Source: Nitrospirota bacterium
GTDB taxonomy: Bacteria; JACPQY01
Length of the DNA stretch: 64,000 bases
Assembly: GCA_016180645.1 (NCBI GenBank)
Contig: JACPAV010000028.1
Location: 1 to 64,000, forward strand
Direction: 5' to 3'
The notes below the pieces were generated by a model, which saw nothing but the letters and a program-made list of their open reading frames with translations, searched no databases and was not told where the DNA came from. Position numbers and translations under genes: made by a program. Shown here in pieces: positions 89 through 12,256 of the stretch. The number at the start of each line of letters is the position of its first letter. The first letter of the stretch is position 1.

Positions 89-1162
89 CTACCGGGGGTT
101 GTAGACATAGACCAGTCCGCCAAACAGTTGAGGGAGGAAGACGGCGCTTCCTTCCCACTGGTACTTGCTCTTGTCTCCAAGCACTTCGAACGATATCTCC
201 TTGGAATCTGCGTACGGAGCCAGTATGTACATCCGCCCTCCAAGGACAATCCCGATGGTATCCGCAGCGATGAGTCCAAGAACTACACCCGCAGAACCGG
301 ACAGCACCGTAGAATTCCCGGACTCTGCTGGGAAAAGGGACGTTCCTCCGAACGATAACGTTATCCCACCTATCGCTGGAGGCTCCAACCGCCCCAGATA
401 GATGGTACCAAGATACCCAAACAGCTTGAGATTATTTGATCCGCTCGCTTCGATCGCCGTCCCGCTCTTCGCTGTCGCCTCCACATCCGTTGGCAAATAC
501 AGAAAAGTGAGACCCCCGGCGACATGATCGCCGATGGAAGCAAGAAAGTCGGCTCCCATGACCGGACCAGTTCCGATCTTCTCGGAAATTGAGGCTACAA
601 CCTTTCCTTGGGAGAAACTCTCAAGCTTCGCTGTTTCGTCTAGCAACCCAATTGCTACTCCGCCTGTGATCGTTGCAATCGTGGATTCGAGGCCCCGCCC
701 GAAAGCATCCGTCCTTCTCCTTCGAGAACGGAAGCCCCTTCGGGTTGGTCGTCTGGAAGCCCGTTCCAACTCCCTCGCCAAGTCGTTTCCGACCACGATC
801 AGAATCTCGTAGCGGGATTCGGACGGGAGCTGCTCAACAGAGTCGGATTCTTCAAGAAGCCCCTCTTTCAAGTCCTTGCAGGTCCATACGTGCATAGGCT
901 TGCAAAGGATCTTGGTTTTCCCCTGCACTTTCTTTGCTCGTCCGACTCCTTTGATGGTGTATCCCTTCTTGGCAAGCAATTCGCGGGTTAATTCTGCCGT
1001 GTGTTCATCGTCGGAAGCGTTCAAGATCACAATCTCCGGATTGGTGGCATAAGAGGGGAAGGGGCCAGCGATGACAACACAAAGTATGACGAGGTAGACG
1101 GTTCTACTCGTGCGTGGTTTGCGCCGAGGCCAAGCTGGAGATCCCCGTCGCCCACCGATCAC
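89..1162 (-). CDS. Exported protein with LytR C-terminal domain and a possible beta-barrel C-terminus
   Basis: Hydrophobic signal, then IVILNAS...LAKKGY...YEILIVVGND (LytR_C pattern); C-terminus has alternating beta-strand-like segments ending VYVYNPR. Confidence 0.65.
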   Translation of the reverse strand: MIGGRRGSPAWPRRKPRTSRTVYLVILCVVIAGPFPSYATNPEIVILNASDDEHTAELTRELLAKKGYTIKGVGRAKKVQGKTKILCKPMHVWTCKDLKEGLLEESDSVEQLPSESRYEILIVVGNDLARELERASRRPTRRGFRSRRRRTDAFGRGLESTIATITGGVAIGLLDETAKLESFSQGKVVASISEKIGTGPVMGADFLASIGDHVAGGLTFLYLPTDVEATAKSGTAIEASGSNNLKLFGYLGTIYLGRLEPPAIGGITLSFGGTSLFPAESGNSTVLSGSAGVVLGLIAADTIGIVLGGRMYILAPYADSKEISFEVLGDKSKYQWEGSAVFLPQLFGGLVYVYNPR

Positions 1163-1193
1163 GATCTTTGGAAATGGATTGGAGAATTCGCAG

Positions 1194-1547
1194 TCACGCC
1201 AGTCCGAAAAGTTTGAGCATCAACCCGAATAGAATGATACCCACGATCCCCCACACGATGTCAGATCGTGAAACTGGTCGGAGAACGTATTTCCTGAACG
1301 CTTCTTCCTCTGGAGTGGTAGTTTCCTTCTCAGGGTCGGTCTGAGAATCCAACCCTAGACTCTTCCATCCTGTCTGTTTCCGGGAAAATAGCCCTGTACC
1401 TGGGAAACTTGCTTGCGTGTGAACACCCATCGGGCCGATGCCGAACCGCAAGCCCTTGACGCGGAAACTCGACCCGACGCCCTTCTTGCTCAAGTTCAGC
1501 CGTAGTCCGCCACCGAGATTGATCGATTTTCTGAAGTTTAGGCCCAT
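1194..1547 (-). CDS. DUF4236 domain membrane protein
   Basis: MGLNFRKSINLGGGLRLNLSKKGVG...ASFPGTGL signature; C-terminal TM helix. Confidence 0.8.
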   Translation of the reverse strand: MGLNFRKSINLGGGLRLNLSKKGVGSSFRVKGLRFGIGPMGVHTQASFPGTGLFSRKQTGWKSLGLDSQTDPEKETTTPEEEAFRKYVLRPVSRSDIVWGIVGIILFGLMLKLFGLA

Positions 1548-1628
1548 TCGTCCCCCTTTTTCTTGGTCAATTGGTTCGATGCCAACCCCCGATCATTCTG
1601 CGCAATACCTCTTGCCTGGACGATAGCA

Positions 1629-1676
1629 TAGGGTTGCCCCGTAGGCAACTCTACGGAATCCCCGTCTTGGTAGCGT
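1629..1676 (+). promoter_or_regulatory. Inverted-repeat operator plus extended -10 of the HTH gene
   Basis: TAGGGTTGCC-CCGTA-GGCAACTCTA (9/10 inverted repeat, 1629-1653); TGg-TAGCGT (1668-1676) 6 nt before GTG 1683. Confidence 0.55.
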
Positions 1677-1682
1677 CCGCGC

Positions 1683-1895
1683 GTGGAAGCGGATTACCGG
1701 AAATCGCTCGGACGGAAAATCGAGAAGCTACGGCAACGTAGGAAAATGACCACGGAAGGTCTCGCCTGGGCTTCCGACCTGAGCAAGAGCTACCTTGGTC
1801 GGGTTCAGCGAGGTGAGCGGCTCCCTTCAGTAGACGTTCTTGCGAAACTCGCCAAGGTCCTGGGATGTAAAGTCCGAGAGTTTTTCGACTTCTGA
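1683..1895 (+). CDS. XRE/Cro HTH regulator, controller (C)-protein-like
   Basis: LGRKIEKLRQRRKMTTEGLAWASDLSKSYLGRVQRGERLPSVDVLAKLAKVLG. Confidence 0.85.
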   Translation: MEADYRKSLGRKIEKLRQRRKMTTEGLAWASDLSKSYLGRVQRGERLPSVDVLAKLAKVLGCKVREFFDF

Positions 1896-2707
1896 TAGGC
1901 CCCCGATTCTCGTTTTCTGTACGCGGAATCGCCTGTTGCCTCGGTGGAACCGGCGCTTGAACGGATCGACCCGGTGCACTGGATCAACACCTGGTTAGCA
2001 ATCTGAAGCCGGAGGCGCAGAAACGGGCCTGGCGCATCATGAAAGGGGCCTTCCGATAATTGCGATTGAGGCCGGGAGAAAGATTCCGAGCGTAGTGGTT
2101 GTGGCGTGGATCACCGAGGCTTTTGTCGTGAAAGTCCCCGACCTCCTCAATTTCGGGTTGTAAAAGAGTGCCTCCGCTGCTTTCTCGCTAATTCTCTTTT
2201 TTTCGCGGTTTTCAGAATTTCGGGGGGAAGGAATCGGACTTGTTGATATTCTGTTGACAACGTCGAGAAAACGGGCGGTTAGGTAGCCAAGCCCGGAAAG
2301 TGAACCAAGACAAATGGTCATTTCTCAATAAACGTCAACAAACACCCCAGAAAAGTGAAACACGGCGCACCGTGTCTGTTTCCACTCAGGAGCGTGAGGG
2401 ACGGCGCAAGGTGGCGATGACGATTTGATCCGTTGTTTCCTGCGCGTCGATCTCCCCTATCCCGGAAAATCTACTTCCTGTTTCCTTTGTCATGGGCTGA
2501 AGAATCTTTCAAGCTGCGAATTCTTGGACTTTTGCAATATGCACCGTATGTCACGGTACTGAAGCCGTTCGCGGTGAGCCTGCCGAGCCAAACACGGTGT
2601 ACTTCCAAGAACTTGCCTTTCGACAACCACATGGCGCACGTGCTGGGAAGCGCAGCAAAGCCCAATCTGTAGGAATCCGACGATTTTCAGAAATTGAAAA
2701 GAAGCCT

Positions 2708-2726
2708 TCTCAGGGTAAAGAAAGAG
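2708..2726 (+). repeat. 19-bp direct repeat, copy 1 (upstream of rep)
   Basis: TCTCAGGGTAAAGAAAGAG, identical to 3805-3823. Confidence 0.9.
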
Positions 2727-2767
2727 AAAGCAAGCAAATGAATCCGTAAAGAAAAAGGAGGAATTGA

Positions 2768-3727
2768 ATGGCTGAAAACAAAGGCCGCGCGGCATTCACT
2801 CCAGCGCGGCCCGAACTGAATCACAATCGGCAAAATAAACCATGGACAGGATCACGTCAACCATCATTTTCCACAACCCCTTACCTTGCATATACCGGTT
2901 CTAACCTTGCATTTCTTCCCGATGTAGATCGAGATTGGCATCTGTCAACGTGCGGAGGTCGCCTTGCGACCATTTACGTTCCATCGACCGGGAGGGCCAT
3001 CTACGTTCACGCTGGGTGTAATTCAAGAACCTGCGCAATTTCCGCCCGAAAGCGGCGACGCCGCCATTGGCGCAAATACCGCCCCGTCCTAATCACGTTT
3101 AATCACCCTAGTTTCGTCGTTCTCACCATCCGTCGAGTCCGCTTGGCGGACCTCACCGATGCCGTCGACGCCCTCAAGCGATGTTTTGCCAGACTTCGGA
3201 GGTCCAAGGTATGGCCAATCAAGGCCGGTTTTTGGTCGGTGGAATTTACCGTTGATTCCGAATCGGAAACTGCCTTCCCTCACCTCAACATCATTGGTTT
3301 GAAGGGGGGATGGATCGTCAAAGCGCGACTCAGGAAAGCTTGGCGCAGGATCACCCGGAAGGAAGGACTTGTGGCCAACGACCTCCCCTACGTAAACCAA
3401 ATCCATACACCCAAACATCGGCGAAACGTGTTCAAGTACTCAATCAAGCCCTTGCGGATTCGGAAAAGGATTCGGGTCCAAGTCGATCGAGCTATCAGAG
3501 GAAAGCGTCTTTTCGGCACTTTTGGCCCGCGATCCTATTTCCGCCTAGCACTACGGCCGAAGTCCCGAAGTGCTTTCTTTCGTCAGACACCTGACGTGAA
3601 CGACGTTATCGACAGCCTCTTCCTTCCTGTCAATGTGCCTGCCCTCGAAGAGGACATACTCAATTCGCGCGATGACGACAAGGACGAAACCTTCTGGGGT
3701 CCAGCGGAACTCTTCGGATTCGAATAA
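2768..3727 (+). CDS. Rolling-circle replication initiator (Rep_1/pC194-like HUH endonuclease)
   Basis: CNSRTC, motif I FVVLT, WSVEFT, motif II PHLNII, motif III KYSIKP; RBS AAGGAGG upstream. Confidence 0.75.
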   Translation: MAENKGRAAFTPARPELNHNRQNKPWTGSRQPSFSTTPYLAYTGSNLAFLPDVDRDWHLSTCGGRLATIYVPSTGRAIYVHAGCNSRTCAISARKRRRRHWRKYRPVLITFNHPSFVVLTIRRVRLADLTDAVDALKRCFARLRRSKVWPIKAGFWSVEFTVDSESETAFPHLNIIGLKGGWIVKARLRKAWRRITRKEGLVANDLPYVNQIHTPKHRRNVFKYSIKPLRIRKRIRVQVDRAIRGKRLFGTFGPRSYFRLALRPKSRSAFFRQTPDVNDVIDSLFLPVNVPALEEDILNSRDDDKDETFWGPAELFGFE

Positions 3728-3804
3728 CAGGATTGAAAGGTGACTGATGGGCCTAGCGGGTCGGCCCGGCGAATGCCGGAAATGCTACGTTTTAAGATTC
3801 AGGG

Positions 3805-3823
3805 TCTCAGGGTAAAGAAAGAG
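3805..3823 (+). repeat. 19-bp direct repeat, copy 2 (downstream of rep)
   Basis: TCTCAGGGTAAAGAAAGAG, identical to 2708-2726. Confidence 0.9.
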
Positions 3824-4008
3824 TGTGGAGACAGATAGTGAAATGAGACTCCGGGCGACGAGCCGCATGAGGGCGGTGCTGTTGTCACAAGATCCGGCCG
3901 GAATTGGTGCGGTTTCCGCGATACTGCGGCGAGTCGCACTACCGCCCTACCGAGGGCATGGGAACGCGCCGGTCATCCGGAAATCCGCCCTGGAAGGGCC
4001 TTTCTGAA

Positions 4009-4194
4009 ATGGCCAGGAACACGAAACCTACCGAGCCGAGAGAATGCCCGGCATGTGGGCGGGAATTCTTGGTGAGCAAATGGAACGGCAAGAAACGGTA
4101 TTGCAGCCGGGAGTGCCAAACCCGTGCGGCCAGCCAGCGGCAATACGTGCAGTTCAAGGAGGCTCTCGCCGCCGTGAAGAGGTCAGCCGGGTAG
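4009..4194 (+). CDS. Small zinc-finger protein
   Basis: CPACGREF...KRYCSREC motif. Confidence 0.65.
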   Translation: MARNTKPTEPRECPACGREFLVSKWNGKKRYCSRECQTRAASQRQYVQFKEALAAVKRSAG

Positions 4195-4197
4195 GGT

Positions 4198-4455
4198 ATG
4201 GACACCACCACGGAGGTGAGTCCATTCCCGTCTCCGGGCGGCTGTGCCGAGCCGTTTTCAGTTGGACCCATCCAGGCGGAGAAATTGACCGGCATGAGTC
4301 GGCATTACTGGCGGCAACTTGCTTACAAGGGGGTCATTCGTTCATTCAAGGTGGGGCGTCGTCTGCTCCTTGATTGGGGCGAGGTGAAAGCCCACATCGA
4401 GAAGCACCAAGTTGAACGAAAGGCGGCGACCTCAATCGAAGAGCGGCACTCTTGA
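4198..4455 (+). CDS. Excisionase-like HTH (HTH_17/MerR-type) protein
   Basis: QAEKLTGMSRHYWRQLAYKGVIRSFKVGRRLLLDWGEVKAHIE. Confidence 0.75.
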   Translation: MDTTTEVSPFPSPGGCAEPFSVGPIQAEKLTGMSRHYWRQLAYKGVIRSFKVGRRLLLDWGEVKAHIEKHQVERKAATSIEERHS

Positions 4456-4486: not shown

Positions 4487-4687
4487 GTGAGCGCAAGGCG
4501 TGTCCGGCAGATTCGGAAAAGGCTTGGTCTCACACAAGCGGAATTGGCTGAACGCCTTGGAACGACACGGACAACCATTTCACGCTGGGAAGCCGGTATC
4601 CGGCAGCCATCGCGTATGGTCCTGAATGCTCTTGGTTGGTTAGTGGAGATTTCCGGGAAGTCGCTGAAAGGGGGGAAACGTGCCTAG
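4487..4687 (+). CDS. XRE-family HTH regulator
   Basis: VRQIRKRLGLTQAELAERLGTTRTTISRWEAGIRQP. Confidence 0.85.
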   Translation: MSARRVRQIRKRLGLTQAELAERLGTTRTTISRWEAGIRQPSRMVLNALGWLVEISGKSLKGGKRA

Positions 4688-4726: not shown

Positions 4727-5005
4727 CTATCCAATGCCCTCCAAGCGGTGCCCGCCGACGGCCCGGATTCGAAGTTGCCCGGACGCAGGAATTTCGAAGT
4801 GGATTCGGTGCGCGTCATCCATGCGGGAGCGGAGAGCGGGCCTGCCGCCTATTTCAATTTTCTCCGTATGAAGCGACGGATGGAAAAGGTTTCCACTGGC
4901 GAGACAGCAAGCCTTGATGAAACGGGATTTCAGGTTCTTGTCCCATGAGTCCACGGTATCAAGTTCGGCAGGCGGAATGACGATTTCGAAGCGAGCGGTG
5001 GACAC
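4727..5005 (-). CDS. RelE/ParE-superfamily toxin
   Basis: HPSLHTEKI...RSRMDDAHRIHF...IRAVGGH pattern, 92 aa. Confidence 0.65.
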   Translation of the reverse strand: MSTARFEIVIPPAELDTVDSWDKNLKSRFIKACCLASGNLFHPSLHTEKIEIGGRPALRSRMDDAHRIHFEIPASGQLRIRAVGGHRLEGIG

Positions 5006-5024
5006 GTCCGGCGTGGGCCGCGGC

Positions 5025-5198
5025 CTACCGAGCGGTCTTACGCCACTGTTTCAGTTCTTCAGGCGTAAGGGCTTCCTTGAGTGTGCGGTAACGAACGACC
5101 GGGAGCTTATCCAGCATCTTCTTGATGGCGATGGACTCCGCGCGGGTTCGCCCGTAATTGGGAACCTTCGCGGATTTCTTTCCTCTTCCGTTCTTCAC
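5025..5198 (-). CDS. Small basic protein, putative antitoxin
   Basis: 57 aa, directly upstream of the toxin; GTG 6 nt after the -10. Confidence 0.5.
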   Translation of the reverse strand: MKNGRGKKSAKVPNYGRTRAESIAIKKMLDKLPVVRYRTLKEALTPEELKQWRKTAR

Positions 5199-5204
5199 GC
5201 TTTC

Positions 5205-5233
5205 AGTGTACTCCCGGCCCGGAAGCCGGTCAA
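5205..5233 (-). promoter_or_regulatory. Sigma70 promoter of the TA operon
   Basis: TTGACC-17 nt-TACACT on the minus strand. Confidence 0.65.
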
Positions 5234-5250
5234 ATGGAAGGAGGGAAGTC

Positions 5251-6678
5251 ATGCCTAGACCGAGGCTGAAACCTTGCAAAGGCGTCACACCGCTCAAGGA
5301 TGGCCGGTACCTGGTCCGGTACGTGGATCAATTTGGATCGGACCACAAGGAAATCAAGGCCACGCTTCAAGAGGCCATGGACCGCAAGCGGGAAGTAACG
5401 GAGGCCATCGGGCGGGGGGAACGCCCCTGGATGGAGCGGAAGGACAAGCCGGTGCTGTTCGATGAAATCGTCGCGGACAAACTGGCGGACATGGATGACA
5501 AAGGGAGAAAATCGGCGAAAAAGTATGAGGCGGCTTTCCTCACCTTCTGCGAGAAGGCATTTTCCGGGAAGCCGGTGGACTTGATTACCCCCCGTGCCAT
5601 TGAAGATTTTTTGCGGGCGCTACAAAAGGCGGATGGCGAATTCAAGGGGGCCAACCTGCACGGTCAAGGACGCGAAGGGGCCACGCTGAACCGTTATCGG
5701 GCTTTCCTCTCCGGTTGTTTCCGGGTGGCGGTGAAGAACGGGAAGGCGAAGTACAACCCGGTGTCTCAAGTGGACCGGAGGGACGAAAAGCCCCCGCGTG
5801 ACGTGTACCTGACGGTCAAGGATGAATCCGCGATCCTGGAAAAGTGTCCGGGTTGGCTCCGGCCCGTTGCGGTGCTTGGGTTCGACACGGGGGCGCGGCT
5901 GTCGGAGATTCTCGGCATTCGGTGGGAGGATGTGGATCTGGACCGCCGGGAAATCCACTTCCCGGAAACGAAGAATGACCAACCCCGGACGATTGCGATG
6001 ACGGAGAGGGTGAAAGCGATCCTTGGCAACTTGCGGTACGGCGGGCTGGTGTTTTCCATGCTCGGGCCGCGCCGGTATGGGAATGTTGAACCCGTGGTCG
6101 CGTCGGTTCCATTGGGACGTGTGTTCCTCGCCAAGCGGGATGCCGTTTCACGCGCCTTTGTGAAAGCGGCGAAGGATGCAGGTTTCGCGGATTTCCATTT
6201 CCACGATACCCGGCATGTGTGCGCTACACGGCTGGCGGAATTGGGCTTTCCTCAAAAGGCCATTGGGGAATGGCTGGGGCACTTGACGCCATCGGTCACG
6301 GCCCGGTACATCAACTTTGCAAAGGCGAAAGCTTTCAAGCAGACTATGGCCCGCGCCCTTTCCGGGGAGAAGGCGGGCGGATTGCCCCAAAATGCCGGGT
6401 TTTCCGCCCCTACCGGAAGCCTACCGGAAGCGGAAAAGATGGCTTCCGGGATGGCTCCTAACCCATTGATCTTGCTTGGCCGGAGTGGCGGAATGGCAGA
6501 CGCAGCGGACTCAAAATCCGCCGGTGGCAACGCCGTGGAGGTTCAAGTCCTCTCTCCGGCATTGGCTTCGTCATGCGAGCATTCCTTGCTCGCGAAACAA
6601 GGAAGCCAATACGGCCGGCCTCCTGCCGGGCCGCACTTTCTTCGTGAGCGCGGACATCGTTTCCGCCGAAAAGGTTGA
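5251..6678 (+). CDS. int: Tyrosine recombinase/integrase (ORF continues through tRNA-Leu)
   Basis: RBS GGAGG; TGARLSEI, FHFHDTRH and LGHLTPSVTARY catalytic motifs. Confidence 0.92.
   Translation: MPRPRLKPCKGVTPLKDGRYLVRYVDQFGSDHKEIKATLQEAMDRKREVTEAIGRGERPWMERKDKPVLFDEIVADKLADMDDKGRKSAKKYEAAFLTFCEKAFSGKPVDLITPRAIEDFLRALQKADGEFKGANLHGQGREGATLNRYRAFLSGCFRVAVKNGKAKYNPVSQVDRRDEKPPRDVYLTVKDESAILEKCPGWLRPVAVLGFDTGARLSEILGIRWEDVDLDRREIHFPETKNDQPRTIAMTERVKAILGNLRYGGLVFSMLGPRRYGNVEPVVASVPLGRVFLAKRDAVSRAFVKAAKDAGFADFHFHDTRHVCATRLAELGFPQKAIGEWLGHLTPSVTARYINFAKAKAFKQTMARALSGEKAGGLPQNAGFSAPTGSLPEAEKMASGMAPNPLILLGRSGGMADAADSKSAGGNAVEVQVLSPALASSCEHSLLAKQGSQYGRPPAGPHFLRERGHRFRRKG
6409..6470. promoter_or_regulatory. 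att-arm region: tandem 11-bp repeats and IHF-like site
   Basis: CCTACCGGAAG x2 (6409-6430); TAACCCATTGAT (6459-6470) is the reverse complement of ATCAA-N4-TTA. Confidence 0.55.
6479..6561 (+). tRNA. tRNA-Leu(CAA), CCA not encoded
   Basis: Acceptor GCCGGAG/CTCCGGC-A, anticodon arm GCGGA-CTCAAAA-TCCGC, long variable arm, T-arm GAGG-TTCAAGT-CCTC. Confidence 0.95.
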
Positions 6679-6686
6679 AAGTGCGG
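6631..6686. repeat. Structured repeat, copy 1 (CCGCACTTTC...GAAAGTGCGG)
   Basis: Homologous to 10666-10721. Confidence 0.8.
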
Positions 6687-6754
6687 CGGGCATCCGGCCC
6701 GACCGCACTTGCTTCGTCATTCCGACCTTCCATGGTCGGCGTCGGATGAAGCGA

Positions 6755-10665: not shown

Positions 10666-10721
10666 CCGCACTTTCCACACCATCGCGGACTTCGTGTCCG
10701 CCGTAAAGGTTGAAAGTGCGG
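10666..10721. repeat. Structured repeat, copy 2
   Basis: Homologous to 6631-6686; starts 3 nt after the nth stop. Confidence 0.8.
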
Positions 10722-10784
10722 CCGGCATCACGCCGGGCCGTCTTTCCAACATGGGCCATTCGTCTATAATGCCGCGGAATAGGG

Positions 10785-11405
10785 ATGGGCAAAATCATTC
10801 TCGCCTCGAAGTCGCCCCGGCGGTCGGAACTGCTTGAAAGCATGAAGATTGCCTTTGAGGCGATCCCCAGTGCCGTTCAAGAGAGTTTGAAGGAGGGGGA
10901 GGATCCGAAGGACGGTTGCATGCGGCTCGCCTTGGCCAAGGCGTTCGACGTCTGTGAAAAAGTCGACGGTCAGTCGGCGGAGGAATCGTGGGTGATCGGG
11001 GCCGACACCCTGGTGGTGGTGAACGGAACCGCCCTCGGCATTCCGAAATCGTACGACCAGGCGCGGCACATGCTGCGGATGCTCAGCGGGCGCGAGCACT
11101 GGGTGTTCACCTCGTTCGCCGTGGTCAACTCGGTCACGCGGGGATGGGAGGCGGAGTTGGTCGGAACGCTGGTGAAGATGAAAGAGGTGGACGAGCAGGA
11201 GATCGAGCGGTACCTCCAGACGGGCGAACCATTCGACAAGGCCGGGGCCTATGCCATTCAGGGGATCGGGGCGTTCATGGTGGAGAAGATATTCGGCTCG
11301 TACACCAACGTGGTGGGGTTGCCCATGGCGGAACTCATTCAGGTCCTGATCAAGATGGGCGCGATTCCGGGGTTCCCGGGGAAGCACGAGGAGGAGAAGA
11401 AGTGA
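10785..11405 (+). CDS. maf: Maf nucleotide pyrophosphatase
   Basis: ILASKSPRR, IGADT, DKAGAYAIQ, NVVGLP. Confidence 0.95.
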   Translation: MGKIILASKSPRRSELLESMKIAFEAIPSAVQESLKEGEDPKDGCMRLALAKAFDVCEKVDGQSAEESWVIGADTLVVVNGTALGIPKSYDQARHMLRMLSGREHWVFTSFAVVNSVTRGWEAELVGTLVKMKEVDEQEIERYLQTGEPFDKAGAYAIQGIGAFMVEKIFGSYTNVVGLPMAELIQVLIKMGAIPGFPGKHEEEKK

Positions 11406-12256
11406 GCACGATCCCGATGCCGGCCGTCCGGCCTTCCGACATCGCCGGGAGGCTGCGGGAGGTTCGGGAGAGAATCGACCGGGCGGCGCGACGGTCCGGC
11501 CGATCGGCCCACGACGTCCGTTTGGTCGCGGTCACGAAGACGCTCGACGCCGCCGTGGTCCAAGCGGCCTGCGCGCTCGGCCTTTCGGACTTTGGCGAGA
11601 ACTATATTCAGGAAGCCGCGAAGAAAGTGGCGATCCTCGTGGGGGAAGGCGCACGCCCGACGTGGCACTTGATCGGCCACCTTCAGGCGAATAAGGTGAA
11701 AGCCGTGATGGGAACGTTCGCTTGGATACATTCCGTGGATCGGATGTCGTTGCTCGACGATCTCGCGCGTCAGGGTCGGGCCGAAGCCGCCATGCCGGAA
11801 CTCCTTTTGCAGGTCAATCTCGAACAGGATCGCGCGAAGAGCACCAAATTTGGATTTGAGCCGGCGGAGTTGGAAAATGCCCTCCATGCCGCCGCGGAGC
11901 GGCGCCTCCCCGTGCGGGGCCTGATGACCTTCCCGCCCTATTTCGAAGATCCCGAACGAGCGCGCCCGTACTACGCAAGATTGCGGGCCTTGCGCGAGGA
12001 ACTGGCCCGCCGCGATTGGGGCGAGGGGATCGAGATCCGGGAACTCTCGATGGGAATGTCGAATGACTTCGAAACCGCGATCGAAGAGGGGGCGACGATG
12101 GTGCGTGTGGGGACGTCCTTGTTCGGCGCCCGGATGGCAGAGCCGTCCCGCGACGGCCAGGACGGCCCCAAGCGGGGCGGCGCCCGGATGGCAGAGCCGT
12201 CCCGCGACGGCCAGGACGGCCTAAAGCGGGGTGGGCCGCGGAGGAGAGACGAATGA
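11402..12256 (+). CDS. yggS: PLP homeostasis protein YggS
   Basis: LVAVTK, FGENY, WHLIGHLQ, LSMGMSNDF, VRVGTSLFG. Confidence 0.93.
   Translation: MSTIPMPAVRPSDIAGRLREVRERIDRAARRSGRSAHDVRLVAVTKTLDAAVVQAACALGLSDFGENYIQEAAKKVAILVGEGARPTWHLIGHLQANKVKAVMGTFAWIHSVDRMSLLDDLARQGRAEAAMPELLLQVNLEQDRAKSTKFGFEPAELENALHAAAERRLPVRGLMTFPPYFEDPERARPYYARLRALREELARRDWGEGIEIRELSMGMSNDFETAIEEGATMVRVGTSLFGARMAEPSRDGQDGPKRGGARMAEPSRDGQDGLKRGGPRRRDE
12124..12231 (+). repeat. 54-bp tandem duplication in the yggS 3' end
   Basis: Two near-identical copies encoding GARMAEPSRDGQDG(P/L)KRG. Confidence 0.9.

Follow-up and report, generated by a model that had tools for sequence, protein, structure and literature searches.

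A divergent Rep_1 initiator gene between exact 19-bp repeats with suggestive likeness to a pC194-type nick site, in a tRNA-Leu island of a Nitrospirota bacterium

A pC194 origin followed by a downstream terminator releases circular ssDNA (PMC7072734), and in pHW126 two origins in direct repeat led to deletion of the part between them, by which release is implied (PMC2831885). The original prediction for the locus described here had started from the point that two directly repeated origins set free the segment between them, and this holds in those other systems. In IS91, terIS lies before the gene and oriIS after it, and the bottom strand is the one transposed (PMC13181058). For the HUH transposons (IS91, Helitrons and Replitrons) several origins from plasmid or viral Reps are thought to have taken place, the intermediates being hypothetical, and origin repeats duplicated so as to flank a rep gene have been proposed, as a speculation, to be a possible early intermediate (PMC10288648). 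We found no description of a rep gene lying between twin origins in the literature searched, most subscription papers being outside the search.

In the window (the whole stretch of DNA analysed, 64,000 nt), the sequence TCTCAGGGTAAAGAAAGAG occurs exactly at 2708-2726 and at 3805-3823, the copies being 1,097 nt apart. The left copy ends 41 nt 5' of the ATG of a rep gene (2768) and the right copy begins 77 nt 3' of its stop (3727), so the bracketing repeat, its spacing and the 1,097-bp unit were confirmed as first described. The unit had been said to hold only rep and its ribosome-binding site; both are inside, together with the larger part of a second, 22-codon ORF (3747-3815), which has a Shine-Dalgarno sequence of its own and a stop inside the right copy. 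The features of the unit are as follows:

2704..2731, minus strand: weak stem of 8 bp (one G-T pair) with a 12-nt loop around the left copy, -3.9 kcal/mol
2708..2726, minus strand: left copy of the 19-bp repeat, predicted nick between 2711 and 2710, putative termination site
2746..2754, minus strand: partial (9-nt) third copy of the repeat core, seen in the sequence
2755..2762, plus strand: strong Shine-Dalgarno sequence of rep, AAGGAGGA, seen in the sequence
2768..3727, plus strand: divergent Rep_1 (pC194/pUB110-type) HUH initiator of 319 aa (profile match, alignment and model)
2783..2811, plus strand: G+C-rich hairpin at the 5' end of rep (folding z -2.6)
3747..3815, plus strand: 22-codon ORF with Shine-Dalgarno sequence and CxxC, its TAA inside the right copy
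3805..3823, minus strand: right copy of the 19-bp repeat, predicted nick between 3808 and 3807, putative initiation site

None of 100 shuffles of the sequence yielded a match like the 19-bp repeat, the calculated chance of a 19-nt match between two 300-nt flanks was about 3e-7, and the 4.7-Mb genome held two copies of the 19-mer only, even allowing up to 2 mismatches; a chance origin of the repeat is excluded. As an isolated exact pair of its size, the repeat is not without parallel in the genome: 116 two-copy exact repeats of at least 19 nt lie 500-2000 nt apart; in 11 of them the flanks are unlike, as with the rep pair, and 5 of these 11 are longer repeats clustered on contig C16. Contigs of the sequencing runs X2 and X3, possibly the source samples, spanned the unit unbroken and with zero differences, and both copies were reproduced in separate assemblies of runs X1-X3. 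The G+C content of the unit (0.527) is close to that of the left flank (0.522), the integrase side being at 0.585-0.593. Folding around the left copy was no stronger than in shuffles, and a 7-nt tandem duplication is present at 3799/3807, by the right copy.

Judging from its sequence, the ORF at 2768..3727 is a very divergent member of the Rep_1 family, as had been predicted. It matched Pfam Rep_1 (PF01446) with 27.4 bits and E 2.9e-6, under the cut-off of 33.2 bits, its feature score in the Atlas was 0.97 to Rep_1 clusters, and it had 964 relatives at E<=0.001, none above 39% identity; one of the 964 matches 386 plasmid records which, among the matches listed, are mostly named 'protein rep'. 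Residue conservation was counted in an alignment of the best 150 hits of the 964 (149 relatives). The protein keeps C62, C84, R87, C89, T120, E159, H172, W192, Y224, K227, R247 and G253, and it deviates at conserved positions with S92, F170, N174 and N220. Motif I is preserved in L119-T120, as is the Glu before motif II (E159). In HUH motif II, H172 is kept and the second His is replaced by Asn (N174), which is also found in 12/149 relatives; F170 stands where 141/149 relatives have His, and S92 where 136/149 have a zinc-finger Cys. The catalytic Tyr of motif III (Tyr214 of pC194) corresponds to Y224, aligned with 139/149 relatives, and K227 aligns with 126/149. Four residues before this Tyr, the protein has N220, where the relatives have Tyr (82/149) or Glu (60/149), 142/149 together; Glu210 of pC194, at the same motif position, drives termination (PMC5703833). 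The protein may have become specialised, or it may be in decay.

The structural model of Rep (residues 51-260 confident, mean pLDDT 73.7) had the HUH fold, and in VIA-align HUH proteins were among the top rows with Z of 5.8-8.0, alongside unrelated folds scoring alike, which makes this result supportive only; Foldseek gave zero matches at E<=0.001. Although the branch leading to Rep measures 1.8-2.3 changes per site, the rep frame has remained intact, and this points to long selection. Two quick trees put Rep among the Rep_1 rows and apart from IS91 transposases, but at a different place in each, and no close relatives were found among collection proteins of 175-559 aa. Viral contigs of roughly 40 kb and prophage-like loci with a His-x-Asn Rep_1 (L007-L015, L026-L028 and L030) make up a clade in which the start of rep bears a 30-nt origin under strong conservation; L026 also has a terminase. 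This clade was considered as the nearest kin and set aside, both quick trees placing Rep elsewhere. Within the N-terminal part of rep, where confidence is low, the 9 nt at 2883-2891 recur directly at 2904-2912, a spacing of 21 nt; this repeat is possibly a binding site or an origin remnant and had a background score. Elsewhere in the family, a genome of the class Phycisphaerae (G931) carries five divergent Rep_1 genes on separate small contigs (L060, L081 and L085-L087), probably several small plasmids.

The gene lies in an element integrated at a tRNA gene, with an integrase, a xis-like gene and a duplicated tRNA fragment at both ends. From its two att copies, which are on different contigs, the island would measure about 8.6 kb (the window begins at a contig end), and contigs C7 and C36 would be adjacent. 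Its features outside the unit are:

89..1895: cargo, a LytR_C-like protein (89-1162, minus strand), a DUF4236 protein (1194-1547, minus strand) and an XRE HTH protein (1683-1895, plus strand), by profile search
4009..4194, plus strand: small zinc-finger ORF, weak zf-CGNR/zf-MYND matches below cut-off
4198..4455, plus strand: excisionase-like HTH_17 protein, profile match below cut-off
4487..4687, plus strand: XRE-type HTH regulator, by profile search
4955..4964, minus strand: ACTTGATACC, an exact match to the nick core of the family, within a 92-aa ORF; a further candidate for the nick site
5251..6678, plus strand: tyrosine integrase, its frame running through the tRNA gene, by profile search
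6476..6518, plus strand: att core of 43 nt, corresponding to the 5' half of tRNA-Leu CAA (6479-6561); contig C7 has the other copy at 2025-2067

After rep, the order is thus zinc-finger ORF, excisionase-like HTH gene, XRE regulator, a small gene pair and the integrase; the small pair looks like a toxin-antitoxin module, with zero family matches in profile searches, and the tRNA was the only family found by the Rfam scan. Since related islands (L020-L022) share the order rep - xis - int - tRNA, rep is probably the native initiator of the island rather than an independent passenger. The earlier idea of a Rep-only unit moving on its own inside the island was not upheld, rep sitting where related islands keep their own rep. 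In the only available genome of the same family (84% complete), rep was not found.

The 5' half of tRNA-Leu(CAA) comes from the island (att core and tRNA, 6476-6561). As the frame of the integrase covers the whole tRNA gene, excision would alter the C-terminus of the integrase. A 1.6-kb relative of the island without rep (L002, G000:C28:82118-83775) sits at tRNA-Leu(TAA) with the same end sequences; the middle ~1 kb of its integrase is deleted, and it is possibly a non-autonomous remnant. Two sibling islands (L003, G000:C15:38408-about 47000; L089, G001:C10:227670-228133) share the small gene pair of window 4727-5297 at 68-69% DNA identity, and the one on C15 has, at the place of rep, a 481-aa ORF of primase/helicase appearance (by look, no domain scan). 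A dispersed hairpin-type repeat was noticed at 6631-6705, directly 3' of the tRNA, at 10666-10740, beside the C7 att copy and on many other contigs, and at 12124-12231 two tandem 54-nt copies, 96% alike, lengthen the C-terminus of the ORF 10988-12256.

Read on the minus strand, the repeat is CTCTTTCTTTACCCTG^AGA. The proposal that its reverse complement resembles a pC194 nick site was borne out by homolog origins and by the first 18 nt of the pC194 terminator RCORI36, with which it agrees at 14/18 positions with one gap (sequence from PMC7072734, table A2). Repeat and 18-mer begin and end at the same places, with 16 nt preceding the predicted nick and 3 nt following it. The repeat also contains the 9-mer TTTCTTTAC, with which many homologs' origins start; it occurs 18 times in the genome and 3 times around rep, all on the minus strand, with 0.03 expected in the island, and two of these three are the repeat itself.

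In the homologs themselves, a single coding-strand origin is located at the start of rep, with the consensus TTTCTTTACTTG^ATACC, found in 26 of 41 first-set loci (24 distinct); origins were scored with up to 3 mismatches to a 14-mer, and 24 were used. They lie 212-381 nt before the C..R.C motif where this could be measured, a range that includes the left copy (306 nt), and CTTGATA was present upstream of rep on the coding strand in all six fetched plasmids with an annotated rep. At the rep unit, instead of the single coding-strand site upstream of rep that is typical of a pC194 origin, there are two sites on the non-coding strand. Among the features of a pC194-type origin, the pyrimidine tract is present and the core reads CCTG^AGA against CTTG^ATA, and 4 of 105 matched low-GC controls score as well; the CCTGAGA variant is found in 0/24 of the homolog origins used, and the most conserved part of the origin motif is the part that differs in the repeat.

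The likeness of the right copy to the homolog origin continues 3' of the nick, beyond the repeat. With a 24-column matrix, whose boundaries were chosen after the match was seen, the right copy ranked 13 in the genome, and its score was reached by 1 of 822 control windows upstream of genes; the rank was 290 with 21 columns and wider gaps and 455 with 15 columns, and with 36 columns the copy was not above 8 bits. Overall, 1-6 of the 822 control windows reached the score of the right copy and 5-16 that of the left, and among 105 matched low-GC windows these counts were 1-5 and 3-6. We regard the likeness of the repeat to an origin as suggestive, not decisive. No coding-strand origin stood above background at rep by motif and matrix scan; a supposed remnant at 2878-2900 was rejected for its background score, and the hairpin 2783..2811, near the position of the homologs' pre-origin hairpin, had no recognisable nick motif 3' of it. 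The exact core at 4955..4964 is a competing candidate for the real origin of the island: ACTTGATACC occurs twice in the genome, with 0.004 expected in the island (0.22 as a 14-mer with 3 mismatches), and the homologous genes in two sibling islands are without it.

A check for flanking repeats at homologs had been proposed as well. Of 56 distinct homolog loci whose flanks were long enough, none had an exact bracketing repeat of at least 13 nt, the longest being 8-12 nt (16 more distinct loci were omitted for short flanks and 8 duplicates removed). The surveyed homologs are all distant, so the layout is not a family trait, and its absence from Rep's own lineage is not implied. Long repeats in L031, L032 and L087 were rejected as tight brackets, being contig-end or large duplications. 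Two integrated elements of G1272 with a recombinase-like gene and a Rep_1 gene (L103:7787-8790 and L104:7724-8728) show an origin motif on the coding strand ahead of rep; 995-996 nt from it, and about 22 nt past the stop codon, comes a similar but weaker one, which is situated within the tail of a convergent gene and is probably a coincidence.

The explanation that we put first, at a probability a little short of even, is that the 19-mers are copies of a Rep nick site on the non-coding strand, left by Rep-mediated joining, and that the predicted rep-only circle is now rare or dormant. An active Rep would nick the downstream (right) copy at G^A on the minus strand, and synthesis would run leftwards, displacing the minus strand across Rep's own gene; the nick, its position and the direction are all predicted. 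Termination at the upstream (left) copy would release 2711-3807 as a 1,097-nt single-stranded circle with rep and its Shine-Dalgarno sequence, leaving the chromosome intact, and joining of this circle to a cognate site could have produced a repeat with a long 5' and a short 3' arm, as is seen. Such release would be rare or would no longer occur. An 18-bp stretch is presumably enough for pC194 termination. The length actually given in PMC7072734 is 36 bp. The strand of the nick-site likeness, opposite to rep, had been noted as a caveat, and all homolog origins are indeed on the coding strand; as an objection it does not stand by itself, since the polarity matches that of IS91, whose layout has an active bottom strand (PMC13181058). 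This geometry, with ter upstream and ori downstream, would fit on two inferred conditions: nicking at the repeat and initiation at its right copy. The further proposition, that the unit is a 1.1-kb Rep-only rolling-circle element which descends from a plasmid initiator of the pC194 type and evolved independently of IS91, with the origin duplicated to the non-coding strand and the gene copying itself out and re-inserting at a cognate site, seems to us improbable.

Circle junctions and an empty single-copy allele, proposed as checks from the beginning, were sought in the Logan contigs of runs X1-X4, all of one groundwater study, three of the runs being flagged as possible sources. These contigs, which drop rare variants, showed neither a circle junction nor an empty site, and none of them broke at the repeats; a double-stranded junction above about 5% of the 36-fold depth of the deepest run would probably have been kept, and single-stranded circles missed. 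Breaks in X1 at 1321-1350 and 3459-3488 were rejected as junctions, being tips at a depth of about 2 with what we take to be the library adapter. Rep was present in one copy in the genome, with no copies at other sites or in the collections, where the lineage is thinly sampled, and neither a second Rep nor an IS91 transposase was found in the genome. The exact 19-mer had one match in the viral and five in the metagenome collections; these are chance matches, since flank homology extended over a few bases only and no Rep lay within 2.5 kb. The predicted empty site restores no clean gene, with only short stop-to-stop frames.

Possible, if on the unlikely side, is that the repeat is the scar of an event independent of Rep, such as insertion of a module driven by microhomology or a template-switch duplication, the origin likeness being coincidental and Rep using another site or decaying. 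With p of about 0.01-0.06 against matched low-GC controls the likeness leaves room for this, and the strand is opposite to that of every homolog origin found; a junction may lie at the right copy, to judge from the 7-nt tandem duplication and the sudden end of the 22-codon ORF there. The genome contains further isolated 19-nt pairs, and conserved residues of Rep have been lost. A scar would, however, leave unaccounted for the match of the repeat ends to those of the pC194 18-mer and the right-copy likeness running past the repeat, and the unit is without a transposase or recombinase; the intact rep ORF on its long branch, arguing for long selection, also speaks against it.

Operators seldom need identity at 19 of 19 positions, which counts against a reading of the 19-mer as a duplicated protein-binding or control site, for Rep or an HTH regulator of the island, placed before rep and before the zinc-finger/xis genes, with nothing excised. 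We found no sigma-70-like promoter overlapping either copy, and the motif is absent from sibling islands with the same toxin-antitoxin-like module. The copies do lie shortly 5' of possible starts (41 nt to 2768 and 19 nt to an ATG at 3843), the partial third copy adjoins the Shine-Dalgarno sequence of rep, there are three HTH genes in the island, and pUB110 RepU silences its own promoter from the adjacent origin, as reported in PMC5703833; a control site is nevertheless unlikely. Very unlikely is the reverse direction, in which both copies are nick sites and productive synthesis, begun at the left copy, passes around the excised island until it reaches the right one, giving a circle of about 7.5 kb that lacks rep and making the island a two-part replicon: the left copy is at a homolog-like origin distance from the catalytic domain, in a small hairpin, and the island carries an integrase and att sites, but the right copy matches the full origin consensus better than the left, and no empty allele was seen in the run contigs. 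That the repeat is due to chance or an assembly artefact, for which its purine-rich make-up only would speak, is hardly credible given the shuffles, the calculated probability and the separate X1-X3 assemblies.

Among known systems, the unit is closest to the pC194/pUB110 replicons (PF01446) and to engineered pC194 origin-terminator pairs, with which it shares the protein family and the 14/18 agreement with the start of RCORI36 and, if the repeat is a nick site, the principle of two direct-repeat sites releasing circular ssDNA (PMC7072734). Unlike pC194, the site is on the non-coding strand, is present twice and has the core CCTGAGA, not CTTGATA; motif III has Asn for Glu210/Tyr, and the unit is chromosomal. 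The tRNA-integrated Rep_1 elements of Acidobacteriota (L020-L022; related L019, L023 and L025) have the same succession of rep, HTH_17 xis, tyrosine integrase and tRNA, but their origin is single and on the coding strand, where rep begins, and repeats bracketing rep are absent.

With IS91 the unit would share a HUH gene between an upstream terminator and a downstream origin end, an active bottom strand and an ssDNA circle intermediate (PMC13181058), the ends being putative in our case. The two ends of IS91 differ, sharing only a cut site at the tetranucleotide level, and the rep unit occurs once. Its protein had no match to IS91 transposases (NF033538, Y2_Tnp, Zn_Tnp_IS91) at E<=0.1 in NCBIfam and E<=1 in Pfam, and it lay apart from 5 IS91 rows in a quick tree; three Rep relatives had weak IS91 matches (E 5e-7 to 3e-4). 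The tandem prophages of CTXphi also yield free ssDNA from the chromosome between tandem copies, in a rolling-circle-like manner and without excision, and circle formation by an origin followed by a terminator is implied there as well (PMC4439123), but these are whole phage genomes in tandem with the RstA initiator and packaging genes. The Replitrons, eukaryotic HUH transposons, resemble the unit in having a lone Rep-type gene between short direct repeats and differ in their Reps of the CRESS/pMV158 supercluster, in repeats of about 6 nt (Replitron-1), in being multicopy and in having been shown to move (PMC10288648).

The layout of the rep unit resembles the intermediate imagined in the Replitron paper (PMC10288648), and a natural Rep_1 gene framed by origin-like repeats with IS91 polarity is what a replicon-to-transposon intermediate would be expected to look like. 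If the unit were a Rep-only element, it would be the bacterial equivalent of the Replitrons and would capture the passage from replicon to transposon. If Rep cuts CCTG^AGA, the specificity has changed in a core otherwise conserved family-wide; should Rep fail to cut there, what remains is a small island of the ordinary kind in which a local duplication has occurred. The whole unit measures 1.1 kb, a singleton with negative mobility results that can be tested cheaply. The rep unit would work, if at all, like a pC194-type origin-terminator pair with the polarity of IS91, of which it is not a member.
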